16,417 bases of DNA, taken from Coleofasciculus chthonoplastes F2-STO-03 (lineage in GTDB: Bacteria > Cyanobacteriota > Cyanobacteriia > Cyanobacteriales > Coleofasciculaceae). The first letter of the stretch is position 1. Every line of letters starts with the position of its first letter. This document shows, piece by piece, positions 3,012-16,417 of this stretch. The stretch lies in NCBI GenBank assembly GCA_040222015.1, contig JAVJWO010000062.1:1-16417 (forward strand). Reading direction: 5' to 3'. The notes under the pieces were generated by a model. The model saw nothing but the letters and a program-made list of their open reading frames with translations, made no database searches and was not told the DNA's origin. The position numbers and the translations under genes are program-made.

Positions 3012-4793
3012 TTAATCTTCAGAAATCCTCAACTCGTGAATATTCCAGAACGCACCCCCTAAAGCCGAATACTCAATCCCCTCGACGCGATCGCGCACAG
3101 CCGTCATCGATAGGGGATTCACCAAATAAATAAAAGGTAAGTGTTCTTTAATCAAACGTTGAGCTTCACCATAAATAGCTTTACGCTTTTCTTCATCCAA
3201 CTCTTGAGACCCTTTAATATAGAGATCACTGATCCCTTGCTCCCAAGGCGCAACCTCCCACCCCTGAATCTCCGGTTGACCAACCGTTGGTTTTTGATTA
3301 AAACTGTGCAATCCACCTTCCGTAGACCAGACATTAGCACTATTATTCGGTTCTAGTCCACCACCCGAAAAACCCAGAAGATGACATTCCCAATCTAAAC
3401 TGTTACTCAGTTTTTCGACCAAAGTACTAAAAGCAATGGGATTAAAATCCACTTGTATGCCAACTTTCGCCAAATCTCGTTTAATTTGCGATCCCATGGC
3501 TTCGCGCAGTTTATTCCCCGCATTGGTAATTAAAGTGAAACGCACGCGATTGCCTTGATCATCCAGGAGTTGTCCTTCATCGTTATACTGGAAACCCGCG
3601 TTTAACAGTAATTCTTTAGCTTTGTCCAGATTATATTCGTAAATTGGCAGTCCTTCTTCGGGAGACAAATAATAAGGACTTTGTACCGGAAGGTTGGAAT
3701 ACTGAGGTTCACCCAATCCCCGAAACGAGTTATCAATCATCGTTCTGCGGTCAATCGCATACGCCACCGCCTGTCTAAATTCCAAGGTATTGAACCAACG
3801 GGATTTCATCGGTTCAATTAAGGGTTCGCCGTCTCGACTGCCTTTGTTAAGATTAAATGAAATAAAACTAGAACTTAGCGTGGGACCGCCAACGTAAATG
3901 TTAAAGTTACTGCGTTCCTCTTCCCGCTTGAGTAGGGAATAGAAATTCGGTGAGACACTAATCGCATCTAACCCACCGGAACGAAACTGCAAAAAGGCAG
4001 TATCCGTAGATTCAACAACTTCCCAGAACAGCCGATTAATATAAGGTTGGGGTTGACCTTGAGATCCTTTACGCCAGTAATAGGGATTGCGGCGAAAGAC
4101 TAAGCGTTGATTGGTATTGTAAAGATCAAGCTGATAAGGACCATTGACCACAATTTTATCCGGGTCAGTATCCACACCCCAAGTGGTCATAAACTTGGGT
4201 CTTCCTTCTTGGTCTTTCTCAGTTATCGTATCCTTAAGGGCGTGGGCGGGTAAAATTGCCAGTCCTGTGGTGCGGAGAAAGGGCGCAAACGGTTCGGGTG
4301 TGGTAAATTCAATTCGCCTCTCATCGAGTTTCCGTACAGTGGGAAAGCCGCGTGTTTCGCCAATTCTGAGAATGTCGCGAATATCGGTGGGAATGTCTTC
4401 GTTGAGATAGATATCGTTATAGGTAAAGACAATATCATCAACGGTTAAGGGTTCTCCATCAGACCACTTTAATCCCTCTCGCAGGGTAAAAACAATCCGC
4501 TGTTGGTTATCGGAGATATCCCAAGACTCAGCCAGAGAGGGTTCAATTTCTCCAGTGATACCATTTTCCGTCACCAGTCCTTCGTAAGTGTAGCCAAAAA
4601 TATTCGGCGACTCCTGAGAGAGGGCGTAGTTAAAGGTTTTGGGGTCACTGAGAATACTGGTCACCAGTTGGGAACCCTGGGCGGCTTGCGAGGTAAAGAG
4701 TGCAGGGTTACAGGCGGACAGTGCGATTGCGACGATACAGGTCAGTAGACTTAGACACCAGCGACGCAGAGGAATGTTTGCCAAGATAGTCAC
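3012..4793 (-). CDS. ABC transporter substrate-binding lipoprotein, family 5 (peptide/nickel)
   Basis: Lipobox LSAC; DPKTFN, EGLV....EPSLAESW, FTLREGLKWSDGEPLTVDDIVFTY, NGPY, FRQAVAYAIDR motifs. Confidence 0.93.
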   Translation of the reverse strand: MTILANIPLRRWCLSLLTCIVAIALSACNPALFTSQAAQGSQLVTSILSDPKTFNYALSQESPNIFGYTYEGLVTENGITGEIEPSLAESWDISDNQQRIVFTLREGLKWSDGEPLTVDDIVFTYNDIYLNEDIPTDIRDILRIGETRGFPTVRKLDERRIEFTTPEPFAPFLRTTGLAILPAHALKDTITEKDQEGRPKFMTTWGVDTDPDKIVVNGPYQLDLYNTNQRLVFRRNPYYWRKGSQGQPQPYINRLFWEVVESTDTAFLQFRSGGLDAISVSPNFYSLLKREEERSNFNIYVGGPTLSSSFISFNLNKGSRDGEPLIEPMKSRWFNTLEFRQAVAYAIDRRTMIDNSFRGLGEPQYSNLPVQSPYYLSPEEGLPIYEYNLDKAKELLLNAGFQYNDEGQLLDDQGNRVRFTLITNAGNKLREAMGSQIKRDLAKVGIQVDFNPIAFSTLVEKLSNSLDWECHLLGFSGGGLEPNNSANVWSTEGGLHSFNQKPTVGQPEIQGWEVAPWEQGISDLYIKGSQELDEEKRKAIYGEAQRLIKEHLPFIYLVNPLSMTAVRDRVEGIEYSALGGAFWNIHELRISED

Positions 4794-4822
4794 GAATCCG
4801 ATTCAATGCTTACAACCTAATT

Positions 4823-4862
4823 GTAGAGACGATAGTAGAGACGCGCCATGGCGCGTCTCTAC
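4823..4862. repeat. Second GTAG REP family: perfect 28-bp palindrome plus a duplicated arm
   Basis: GTAGAGACGCGCCATGGCGCGTCTCTAC at 4835-4862, preceded by GTAGAGACG at 4823-4831; identical palindrome at 11277-11304. Confidence 0.9.
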
Positions 4863-4884
4863 AACTGTTAGGCTTGAGCCATCT

Positions 4885-5056
4885 GCATCACAAAGGACAA
4901 GTGACGTCCTCCTACACCGACCCTACGGGTACGGTTGTAGGCTTCCTTTGGGGTTCCGTTTCAGAACGACGCTTCCGGCGTTTTATAGTGGGGAATACGC
5001 AAGAGCCCACTTCTTGCTTATTGCAAGAGAAACTGTAGTTATGGAATTTAGTTTTT
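4885..5056 (-). ncRNA. Putative TnpB omegaRNA (reRNA)-like scaffold plus flank-derived guide
   Basis: Serial stem-loops (5012-5028, 4987-5011, ~4953-4978, 4911-4941) end at the element right end, downstream of a candidate promoter. Both RNA ends are approximate. Confidence 0.5.
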
Positions 5057-5214
5057 GCTGTCAATTTACCAGCTTTTACAGCTTTGTCAATGAAATACAA
5101 AAACAATTTACCCTTAATATTAGCTTACAACTTGCTTGTTGTAAGCTAATAAACTGGCGATTCATCCCACGCTCAATCGAAGATTAGAGCGTGGGGAACC
5201 TATCGCCGGATAAG
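4901..5214 (-). mobile_element. Non-autonomous IS200/IS605-family mini-element (no tnpA or tnpB)
   Basis: Minus-strand right end GAAG-CCTACAACCGTACCCGTAGGGTCGGTGTAGG-AGGACG-TCAC. Left-end hairpin CCCACGCTC...GAGCGTGGG at 5166-5195 with outer GGCGAT/ATCGCC. 4901-4995 matches 16323-16417 at 94/95 nt, with identity stopping exactly at TCAC. The left boundary is inferred. Confidence 0.8.
5063..5090 (-). promoter_or_regulatory. Putative promoter inside the mini-element
   Basis: Minus strand TTGACA (5090-5085), 16 nt, TAAATT (5068-5063) with an extended TGn; a second TTGACA at 5064-5059. Confidence 0.45.
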
Positions 5215-8200
5215 CTAAACATCCTCATTCTCCTCATCCTCCACATATTCCGCCGCCAACTCGTCTGAGTTTTCGTCCTCATCCATCAGCGACTCAAAAT
5301 CGCTGGTATCCTCTTCTTCCATACTGTAAGCGCGAGCCGTGCGATCGTCTAGCACTTCTAAGGAATCATCTTGGTCGAATTCACTACTCTCATTCAGATC
5401 GCCAAAATTATACTCAGCGCCGCCATTTGAGGAATCAGCATCGACACCACTGGTTGGGTCTTCATAAGCGTTGTACCCGGTTCCTGCGGGAATCAGGCGA
5501 CCAATAATCACGTTCTCCTTCAGACCCCGTAACCAATCGGATTTCCCTTCAATAGCAGCTTCGGTGAGGACACGAGTGGTTTCCTGGAAGCTAGCGGCGG
5601 AGATGAAGCTATCCGTATTCAGTGAGGCTTTGGTAATCCCCAATAATACCGGCGTATATTGAGCCGGTGCGCCTCCGGTAATTGCCATGGCTTCATTTAC
5701 GGTCTCAATTTGCCGCAACTCCACCAATTCTCCAGGTAGCATTGTGGTATCACCCCCATCATCGACCCGAACTTTAGAGGTCATCTGACGGACAATCACT
5801 TCGATATGCTTGTCCGAGATATCAATTCCCTGGGATTGGTACACCGACTGGACTTCATTAACCAGAAATGCTTGTGCGGCTTGCAGTCCCGCTAAAGCAC
5901 CTTCATAGATTCCCTTTTCTTCCACAGTGAAATTAAAGAAGATCTCCAGAATCTCGTGGGGATTTGCCGGTCCATCAGTTAACGGTTGACCTACCTTAAC
6001 AAACTGAGCATCGGAAACCATCGCGTTTTGTCCCGGACTCACCGGATAATCTGTAATCACCCCTTCCGGTTCAATCACTTTGATATCAACAGTTTCATCT
6101 TCCTCATAAACCACCTGCGTCTCACCGGGACGTCGGGCTAATACACAGGCTTCTTTGGGTCTACGGGCTTCTAGGAGTTCTTCAATCCGGGGTAGTCCTT
6201 GAATAATATCCCCCGTCTTCGCCCGCTCAAACACCAGCAGCACCAGGTTGTCACCCCGTTGCACCAAGTCTCCATTATCAATTTGCAGCACCGCACCGGC
6301 GGACACCCGATAAGGACGTGCGAGTCTCAACGTTACTGAGTCTTCCTTCACTTGGACAACTTGTCCGGATTCGGAGGCTTGCAGATTGGCGGCGAGGAAA
6401 TCAGTCTCCACGACTAAATCTGCCACCTTCACCTGAGGTGTGCCACTAATGGGAACGGTAATCCGATCCGCATCCCGAACCACCAGTACCCGGCGAATGG
6501 CTTCCACCCCTTCGCGAATCCCTCGGACTTCACCGGATTCTTTACACTGAATTTCGGTGCGGGCGACGACGTCTTTGGGCGCAATTTTATCCCCATCGTT
6601 AACTAACAGCCGAGTTTGGGTACTTCCCCCTAAGGGATCAGCCGAGGTATCGCGCCGGATCACCAACGATTCCAGGATTACCAACTGCAACCGCCTGTCC
6701 TCTGGATCATCCGACTCTTCGGTTGTGACTAATTCAATATCAGCAGAAAGCTGAGAGGTGGAATGATCGCCGTCGGACTCATGAGTCATGTCCAAAACGA
6801 GTTGAGTTCGCAGCAACTCTAGTCCTTCAACGGACTTGATCCGCTCTCCATCTTTGTAGGGTAGTCGCTGAATCGTCCGTAGTTCAATCGCGATCGCACT
6901 CTCGCCATCCGACTCACCGCCCTCGGCTGAAGCACCGTTGGCACTGTCGATGGAGGCTTGAGAGGGGACATCGGGTTCATCGGGAATCTTAAACTCTACC
7001 ACAGGTCTGAGCAGTAATGCCATTCCCTCTGGCGTCTCGGCGATTTCCCCATACCGCAGTTCCGCCACGCTTAACCCCGGAACGGGTTCTGTACCCGGAT
7101 GTACCAGCTGACCTTCAGAGGCAAAAGCCTCGGGGACTTCATCCACCAAATGCAAGTCTCCGGGCTTAATCACAATTTCCCGCAGAATGTCATTCTTCTG
7201 CACAACTTCGACAATCCCTCCCGATTGACAGAAGATATCTTTCACCACTTCTGTCCCGGCTTCCACATATTGACCATCTTCCACTAGCAGCAACGAGATA
7301 TCTTTATTAACCTCGTGGCATTCTTCAGGAATCCACAGCAGGGTGCCGCCTTTAGTGACTTCGTATCCTTGCTTGGCTTTACCGCGCTTGGCGACTTCTA
7401 CGCCGCCATACTTAATAATCCCCCCAGTCTGGGTGCGATAGCGATCATCAACCAGCTCCGCTACCACTTGATTATTTAACACTTTTGTGCCTGGGGTTGC
7501 CTTGAGCAAGAAGCGCTGGTTATTGGCGGTGTGAATCACATACTGTTCGCGACCCCCACTACTTTCCATCCGCACCGCCGCTTGGTCTAGGCGTACTGAC
7601 GCGGTGATGATGTCAATTTCCCGCTTGCCCGGTGTCAGTCGCACTACACCACCGTTTTGGCTAACTAACTTGGTTTCTGCTAAAACGGAACCGGGTTCCA
7701 CGGCATCCCCGTTTCTGACCACGGGTTCGGCACCAGGGGGCAGATTATACACCTCTCCTGATAACACCCACAACAAGCCACCGCGCTGGGCAGTGCGGGT
7801 CGTATTCCCTTGGCGATCGGTTTTTTCTTCGGGGATCAAGTCGGCAAACAGAACTTCTCCCGCCAAATCCGAGGCTACGTCTTTCGCGGCTTTTTCCGTA
7901 GACAGGCGAGATTTGCCCAACGCCACTTCTGCTAAAAGCTGTTCTGCTTTTACCTGTTGCCCATCGGTAACTAGGAGGATGGAACCAGGCGTGACCGGAA
8001 CAGTCTTGGCTTTCCCCTTATTGGTGGGTTCCAGAATCAGTTCGCCTGCGACTTCCACCTGTTCGCGCTCTTCACCGTGGCGGGTACGGACACCTCGGGT
8101 TCGCAGACTGCTCGAAAAGCGGACAACACCGTCAAACGCCGCTGAGACTTGGCGGGCGACTTCACCGGTGAATACTCCCCCGGTGTGGAACGTCCGCATG

Positions 8201-16073: not shown

Positions 16074-16322
16074 TGTGTTTGTCCTCCCCCGCTCAATTCT
16101 TACCCAAGACCAACCCAATGAACTAACATTTTTCCTAGCTTAGAGCTTATTTTTGAGTTAACACGCTTAAAATCGGGTGTCACTCACATCTTGCACCCGT
16201 CTTACCAACCCCGTTAAACCCTAGACTCAAAGCTCAAACCCGCTCAAGCTTACTGGATAAGGGTTTGCGGGCGTTCACCCGCCTCAGCCTCAGTGAGCTA
16301 ACCGCAGAAATATACTGACTAG

Positions 16323-16417
16323 GTGACGTCCTCCTACACCGACCCTACGGGTACAGTTGTAGGCTTCCTTTGGGGTTCCGTTTCAGAACGACGCTTCCGG
16401 CGTTTTATAGTGGGGAA
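16323..16417 (-). mobile_element. Right end of a second copy of the IS200/IS605-type element (truncated by the window edge)
   Basis: 94/95 nt identical to 4901-4995, with a single G/A difference at 4933/16355; same orientation. Confidence 0.85.

Follow-up and report, generated by a model that had tools for sequence, protein, structure and literature searches.

A gene-less IS200/IS605 element behind rpoC2 of a Coleofasciculus genome as a candidate self-promoted ωRNA cassette

Behind rpoC2 on contig C62 of genome G000 lies a mini-element of 314 bp (5214→4901, minus strand; positions are those of the window, that is, the whole stretch of 16,417 nucleotides analysed here). It contains no transposase or nuclease gene, and its right end reads GAAG-hairpin-TCAC. 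The locus raises the question of what such an element descends from and what its remaining sequence may still do. An earlier note had described an element of ~314 bp with a left-end hairpin and this right end, and its description was borne out, with the boundaries set by other copies of the element. We regard it as virtually certain that this is a protein-free IS200/IS605 PATE. Our preferred reading, to which we assign a probability of about 0.55, is that the family consists of self-promoted ωRNA cassettes that make productive use of a TnpB in trans for their own retention. For the window copy, which is slightly degenerate, we are mildly inclined to doubt such productive use.

Setting, copies and insertion sites

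The element adjoins the rpoC2 stop codon (5215) in the same orientation, and a gene for an ABC substrate-binding protein (PF00496) starts at 4793, 108 nt downstream; all three lie on the minus strand (Table 1). The window also holds rpoB and split rpoC1/rpoC2 frames, which mark a cyanobacterium, and at 2070-2694 a Phd/YefM antitoxin and ParE-family toxin pair. The element is without terminal inverted repeats and has palindromes near both ends. Folded as the minus strand, the whole element beat its shuffles (z -7.9, 0/100), and so did its 3' 176 nt (z -3.0, 2/200). No Rfam family reached the gathering score over the window, and none reached E≤1 over 4800-5300. A 64-aa frame (4912-5106) had no Pfam match and was rejected as a gene. 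The earlier statement that the element has no credible ORF therefore holds as far as genes are concerned, but the same frame is the decayed 3' end of a tnpB, matched by the element on contig C131 at element positions 122-149 and 215-314.

Table 1. Positions of the element's parts and of adjoining features in the window
Feature	Position	Strand	Basis
Target/TAM TTTAG (core TTAG), outside the element; includes the rpoC2 stop codon TAG	5215..5219	-	Directly precedes 21/23 left-end rows; ORF end 5215
Left end with subterminal hairpin (5207-5156)	5156..5214	-	91% over 57 nt to C131 left end; fold
Inherited σ70-like promoter: -35 CTTACA 5145-5140, 17-nt spacer, -10 TAATAT 5122-5117	5117..5145	-	Alignment motif; predicted
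Perfect 14-bp inverted repeat, overlying the promoter in the window copy	5118-5151	-	Sequence
Second promoter-like match TTGACA, 16 nt, TAAATT; arose inside the tnpB remnant	5063..5090	-	Scan
Decayed tnpB 3' coding remnant (YKAAKAGK codons 5093-5066) and deletion-junction hairpin (5028-5012)	5012..5093	-	86% over 28 nt to C131
ωRNA stem 1: 5011-5006 with 4992-4987 (-111..-106 / -92..-87); pseudoknot loop 5001-4997	4987..5011	-	
A-rich linker, short stem (4982-4970), variable hairpin 'stem 3' (4967-4953)	4946..4986	-	
Right end: GAAG 4945-4942, hairpin 4941-4911, 3' pseudoknot strand 4907-4903, terminal TCAC 4904-4901	4901..4945	-	
Flanking host DNA, putative guide, outside the element	4885..4900	-	Orthologous sequence behind rpoC2 in element-free G003; no second occurrence in the assembly at 14 nt
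Second copy of the same PATE family, right-end 95 nt, cut by the contig end	16323..16417	-	98.9% identical

A BLAST search of G000 with the element gave 67 matches, and a near-identical right end was followed there by 12 distinct 3' flanks. The copy-number check proposed in the note thus revealed a multi-copy element with 12 distinct insertions. TTAG stood directly before 21 of 23 left-end rows and after a one-base shift before another, the last having TTAA; TCAC terminated 21 of 24 right-end rows, and the sequence beyond it varied. Because the copies share their ends while their flanks vary, the boundaries of the element are fixed. Two forms were found. The long form (301-314 bp) has five copies in G000, and four other long copies are 92-97.5% identical to the window copy. 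The short form (229-231 bp; four complete copies in G000) lacks the middle 82 nt, and its 231-bp version consists of the left end, the promoter and the last 131 nt. End or whole-element matches occurred in all eight congeners (8/8) and in 18/61 genomes overall.

Precise empty sites, with a gap of 0 between the flanks, were present at 9/10 orthologous loci (4/5 for the C174 copy, 1/1 for C18 and 4/4 for C148); copies C125 and C175 had no usable orthologue for this alignment. Since the flanks abut exactly in relatives, the element inserts 3' of TTAG without target duplication. The window insertion is polymorphic, being absent in 5/5 congeners examined. One of these genomes, G003 (L078, G003:C158), aligns on both sides of the window site but has 4 extra bases after the rpoC2 stop, so that the window site also lost 4 bases at some time (4897-4901 region). 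With these bases missing beside the right end, the guide would match the element's own excision site only and not the ancestral empty allele.

Other sites are filled in two species (G000:C195:16041-16269 and L067 (G001:C131); G000:C131 and L070 (G007:C39)), so that these insertions would predate the split or have moved with their flanks. In RNA run X1, a loose end continues from the right end into sequence that directly follows TTAG in G000 contig C71, and it reads as the filled allele of a site that is empty in G000. Three contigs have the same right end and 46-nt flank (window 16277-16417, G000:C97:1-277 and G000:C100:1-157); the copy on C97 measures 231 bp and the one on C100 111 bp, joined at a repeat common to the left end and stem 1, and the junction is either an assembly bubble or a real rearrangement. 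At G000:C105:21771 (minus) a hybrid passes from the PATE left end, promoter and junction hairpin into the inverted end of an unrelated C195 tnpA element. Lone left ends and other fragments are common in G000. Terminal-only derivatives of ~55-175 bp without stem 1 were seen at G000:C161:14914, at C27:17823-17880 and at L088. The persistence of such much shorter derivatives speaks against a need for the ωRNA part: since they exist, it is not needed for an element to persist.

A second multi-copy family with GAAG/TCAC right ends (G000:C1, C3, C75, C106, C108, C137 and C203) has its own stem 1 and pseudoknot, with no tnpB frame directly upstream. These ends probably represent a further PATE family with an ωRNA, one related to the TnpB type of C26/C189.

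Parent tnpB and the ωRNA-type core

G000 contains 75 matches to the TnpB zinc-finger family PF07282, and three of its elements, on C131, C198 and C49, carry both end types. The C131 element sits after TTTAG, has the same end types as the PATE and encodes a TnpB of 469 aa (PF12323, PF01385, PF07282), whose residues D233, E318 and D416 coincide in the alignment with the RuvC motifs of ISDra2 TnpB and whose zinc finger is present. Identity between the window element and C131 was 91% in the left end, 86% in a 28-nt coding scrap and 82% in the last 100 nt. The earlier note had made its case depend on a tnpB-bearing parent with the same ends; C131, with its catalytic motifs intact, is such a parent and shares the right end. 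In C198 the frame is open and D-E-D is kept, but the gene has gained an in-frame palindrome and a short duplication; C49 has undergone an internal deletion, which leaves C131 as the one clean cognate TnpB in the assembly. A compatible TnpB with an intact RuvC D-E-D, predicted to be active, is thus encoded in the same genome. The palindrome in the C198 tnpB is the same repeat as a GTAG-tagged perfect palindrome at window 4821-4864, for which the assembly has 198 pattern matches.

One deletion junction was common to nine long PATE variants from six genomes, and a copy in G001 retains more tnpB codons together with a remnant of the ribosome site. These two observations indicate that the lineage arose once and is old within the genus. 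As judged from the alignments, the element descends from a tnpB-only element through an internal deletion.

A cognate TnpA, by comparison, was not found: there was none among 43 tnpA loci, no tnpA locus of G000 (a draft assembly of 219 contigs) has these ends, and 108 end-bearing loci yielded no cognate TnpA except in three sister-family elements. Autonomous relatives with a similar end architecture occur in G008 and G029, and the best G000 matches to the TnpA of G008, the nearest autonomous relative, reached 38-43%. In IS608, guide and cleavage sequences obey a position-wise pairing rule; for the comparison with ISDra2, the end TCAA is taken from the earlier note, as against TCAC here. The window itself holds a 233-aa frame (1131-1832) with a weak match to Y1_Tnp and a short peptide repeat inside it, which we take to be a REP-associated tyrosine transposase and which could mobilise small palindromes.

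The ωRNA scaffold of ISDra2 has 116 nt, its stem 1 pairs -116..-111 with -91..-86, a pseudoknot joins -5..-3 to -103..-105, and sequence upstream of -117 can be dispensed with (Nakagawa et al. 2023, PMC10097598). In the present element we propose a pseudoknot between the stem-1 loop (-101..-97) and -7..-3. An A-rich linker is present, and at the place of ISDra2 stem 2 only a local 4-bp stem is predicted. Our alignment A1 comprised 41 ends (12 PATE, 16 core tnpB and 13 sister or other). The pseudoknot helix was paired in 96.1% of 203 cells with 8 two-sided cells (0/500 shuffles; slid controls 24-55%), and the whole structure model was 91.5% paired with 78 two-sided cells; these counts are inflated by sequence kinship and the structure was drawn from the same sequences, while pairing is understated in them through a one-column shift in the stem-1 register of the sister families and through two pseudoknot cells lying in gaps. 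Covariation among copies, on which the note's claim of an ωRNA-like module had likewise been made to depend, is thus seen across 41 ends, and the claim is upheld by a pseudoknot that covaries within a core laid out as in ISDra2.

A two-sided change of a pseudoknot pair from A-U to G-C occurred in 7/12 PATE rows and in 0/16 core tnpB rows. None of 22 genus matches to the 3' side of the changed pair ends a tnpB frame, and the 5' partner lies outside the right-end hairpin. We regard this apparently PATE-only compensatory change, which would be one evolutionary event among related sequences, as suggestive but not decisive. The first pseudoknot pair (-101/-3), which belongs to the core pairs in ISDra2, is mismatched in the window copy, where 4/5 pairs are kept and a U-A pair at -102/-2 is possible. 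The same pair is absent in 5/9 variants (window copy included) and from the most abundant subfamily; all five pairs are present in 4/9. The stem-1 loop variant that breaks it forms an inverted repeat with sequence just upstream (window 5001-5018; also C198, C156 and L052), and its recurrence in several lineages is as would be expected from template switching in single-stranded DNA.

Stem 3 was a hairpin in 9/9 variants at identities of 38-100%. It beat mononucleotide shuffles in 7/9 variants, the window copy not being among them (52/300), and control windows in the tnpB scrap fold too (z to -3.6), although the control row of G005 covered a wrong region. Segment identity was 72-100% for stem 1 and pseudoknot versus 67-98% for the tnpB scrap, so the core is not clearly better conserved. 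RNAalifold on nine PATE cores returned a covariation term of -0.06 and missed stem 3 through alignment slippage. All in all, the last 111 nt very probably represent a retained ωRNA-type core.

Transcription, guides and what the element may do

Hexamers for -35 and -10, set exactly 17 nt apart, stood at the same place in 6/9 long variants with diverged spacers, a pattern chosen after viewing the alignment, and were absent in 3/9. Among the other full-length copies of G000 the -35 is TTGACA in 6/8; it is CTTACA in the window copy and in C18 and is lost in C214. The predicted promoter of the window copy thus appears weakened at its -35. From the inherited promoter an RNA of ~210 nt plus guide is predicted for the long form; that of the short form would begin near the 131 nt kept at the right end. 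A promoter scan found 2 sites versus 0.8±0.9 expected. The ~170-nt RNA claimed in the note fits the second of these (5090-5063), but this site is not kept in diverged PATEs, and the inherited promoter predicts the longer RNA.

Of 24 RNA runs listed, none contained half of the element's words. The RNA evidence that we have consists of assembled contigs of RNA libraries from four runs, which indicate presence only and give no level, strand or RNA ends. Such contigs contain the right end and cross into the flanks of other copies, which, as presence, is no proof of transcription; a single contig of X11 runs from 5088 to 4901 and then 36 nt into the flank of the C174 copy, again as presence only. 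The X1 contigs show an adapter-like loose end at 5093, and their summed depth was ~4,000-32,000 over 4901-5083, 25-36 over the left-end hairpin and 10 over rpoC2, which we treat as a lead and not as evidence, since it speaks to neither level nor strand. The depth contrast was only few-fold in X2 and X4, where one long contig skips the site. The right end joined to the window copy's own flank was in none of the RNA contig pieces listed, which proves nothing.

Using 13 PATE and 3 parent flanks as guides, we searched 64,587 TTAG-adjacent sites, all of them chromosomal. The best match per guide had 3-5 mismatches in 16 nt with seeds of 6-9 nt, as compared with 3-5 mismatches and seeds of 6-11 nt for 25 random controls, and 0/16 flank-derived guides had a second TTAG-adjacent chromosomal target above random 20-mers. 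The sole good target is, on this search, each element's own empty site. In the absence of a second TAM-flanked target, the likely role is selfish retention at that site and not host regulation, and the wider role as a guide cassette that the note had envisaged found no support. The same applies to the nuclease-dead partner named there, as two full-length cognate frames (C131 and C198) keep D-E-D.

Meers et al. (bioRxiv 10.1101/2023.03.14.532601) describe how TnpB cuts the donor joint and recombination with the sister chromosome restores the element; an own empty site as the only good target fits this retention model. AmaTnpB trims RNA to a 126-nt ωRNA, with RNA substrates supplied in vitro (PMC10278001), which makes loading in trans plausible, although it also shows that the usual source for TnpB is its own mRNA, and TnpB may prefer RNA in cis. 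On these grounds we propose the following course. As homology shows, the element arose a single time in the genus, when a tnpB-only element lost its interior and kept the left end, the promoter, a scrap of tnpB and the ωRNA core at the 3' end. A putative Y1 TnpA would mobilise it in trans, with insertion 3' of TTAG and no target duplication, the pattern documented by the empty sites. Minus-strand transcription from the inherited promoter, or rpoC2 read-through in the case of the window copy, would cross TCAC into the flank. The cognate TnpB of C131, or that of C198, would bind the RNA and trim it at the 5' end, by analogy with AmaTnpB. The guide would then direct cutting of the own empty site only (TTAG plus flank) that is left after excision, and, following Meers et al., repair from the sister chromosome would restore the element.

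The most serious alternative is that the element is a passive relic, spread only through recognition of its ends by TnpA, whose ωRNA-like part and promoter are decaying leftovers that form no productive complex with TnpB. We consider this unlikely. It would accommodate the loss of the -101/-3 pair from the most abundant subfamily, a segment conservation that does not single out the core, the persistence of promoterless long variants (3/9) and of minis without stem 1, and the frequency of lone left ends and other fragments. It sits poorly with a two-sided pseudoknot change exclusive to PATEs, with both hexamers and the spacer length being kept while the spacer diverges, with a stem 3 re-paired by new sequences, and with a short form that dropped the scrap and retained promoter and full core.

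It is improbable that PATE RNA is a decoy that binds TnpB and guides poorly, so that one or two tnpB genes face about a dozen cassettes, whose RNA titrates TnpB and reduces its cutting. The numbers in G000 (12 PATE insertions versus 1-2 open cognate tnpB frames) and the imperfect pseudoknot of the main subfamily lend this some colour, but four pseudoknot pairs and the possible U-A at -102/-2 remain, and 4/9 variants keep all five.

Still less credence is due to a role in cis only, in which the left-end hairpin ends rpoB-C1-C2 transcription or the promoters drive the downstream ABC gene: the co-oriented position directly behind the rpoC2 stop and 108 nt upstream of the next gene, and promoter-like sites pointing toward the ABC gene, would suit it, but the scan found no minus-strand terminator, relatives are without the element at this site and the other 11 insertions would be left unexplained. 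Largely refuted, finally, is a domesticated guide cassette for a nuclease-dead TnpB (a TldR-like repressor) or host defence, to which the genome's wealth of TnpB-family matches (75 for PF07282) and the C178 frame (minus, 420 aa), the one of 19 full-length TnpB-like frames without a RuvC-I pattern under a crude, strict motif filter, might point, because C178 is not among the parent's close relatives while C131 and C198 keep D-E-D, the guides come from insertion flanks at random and have no second TTAG-adjacent target above control (3-5 mismatches in 16 at best, the same as for the controls) and the insertion is absent in 5/5 congeners examined.

Retention through a TnpB supplied in trans, the reading that we prefer, has a bolder form, in which the PATE lineage, long established and under selection, serves as a self-promoted ωRNA cassette, a 'parasite of a parasite', and is the main ωRNA supplier in the cell. 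This is tentative, and we lean against it. If it were true, promoter geometry would have been kept and RNA structure re-paired across six species after the loss of tnpB; a single tnpB would protect at least a dozen unrelated sites on a cyanobacterial chromosome present in several copies, its own ωRNA having to compete with more abundant PATE RNA, and the family would offer a natural system for measuring retention in trans and cis/trans competition for TnpB. Many cyanobacteria have several chromosome copies, which would supply repair templates.

Comparison with known systems

TldR systems pair a RuvC-dead protein with a guide RNA that derives from TnpB and has a promoter to itself, the guide being fixed and having a genomic target. 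The present family resembles them in its candidate guide RNA of TnpB origin under a predicted promoter, but its cognate TnpB is intact, its elements move, and their guides are whatever sequence flanks the insertion; neither a RuvC-dead cognate TnpB nor a fixed guide with a TAM-flanked target was found.

With PATEs the agreement is close: the element has no terminal inverted repeats, inserts 3' of a target of 4-6 nt, is gene-less and has IS605-type ends. PATEs were described by Dyall-Smith et al. (2011, PMC3119063), in the passages compared here, as gene-less IS605-type derivatives with near-terminal palindromes, without target duplication and in multiple copies of >90% identity. Our family is alike in all these respects, including the lack of terminal inverted repeats and a length too short for a transposase, and HqIRS71 of that study likewise keeps a disrupted piece of C-terminal coding sequence. 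Unlike those PATEs it has a cyanobacterial host and a TTAG target, and that study predates the ωRNA, its passages compared here leaving guide function aside. According to the Discussion of Meers et al., PATEs often encode ωRNAs that need TnpB in trans. The PATE-like minimal elements of Geobacillus stearothermophilus, as presented there, are similarly gene-less and have the ends of tnpB families, and retention is attributed there to TnpB cutting of the donor joint; they differ in their TAM and TnpB clade, and a matching TnpA was not found in the present assembly.

The family also agrees with standalone ωRNAs in its origin from a tnpB 3' end and right end with a flank guide, in its pseudoknot (at family level) and in a D-E-D effector in the genome. 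Standalone ωRNAs (Altae-Tran et al. 2021, as summarised in PMC10691335) are mobilised, lack effector and transposase and share the genome with effector-bearing loci, as is the case here; that summary states that they were shown to work in trans, with their biological role unknown, whereas trans function is only predicted for our family. With the ISDra2 ωRNA (PMC10097598) it has in common a core of ~110-116 nt, stem 1 near -111/-90, a pseudoknot from the stem-1 loop to the last nucleotides, a terminal stem and a flank guide. The predicted TAM is TTAG here versus TTGAT in ISDra2, and the pseudoknot register in our element is an alignment-based proposal.

Our literature search, which covered mainly openly available papers, found no description of this Coleofasciculus PATE family. 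The family makes a tidy test case: a single intact TnpB stands beside a dozen cassettes without genes, which come in a long and a short form, empty sites are known, and the promoter and a pseudoknot pair are kept in some natural variants and lost in others. For a cyanobacterial TnpB a TTAG-type TAM is predicted, and the family offers a naturally trimmed scaffold of 111-131 nt, with no pointer to a new host function. As ωRNA-bearing PATEs and trans-acting standalone ωRNAs have already been published, the family itself is an addition to a known kind.
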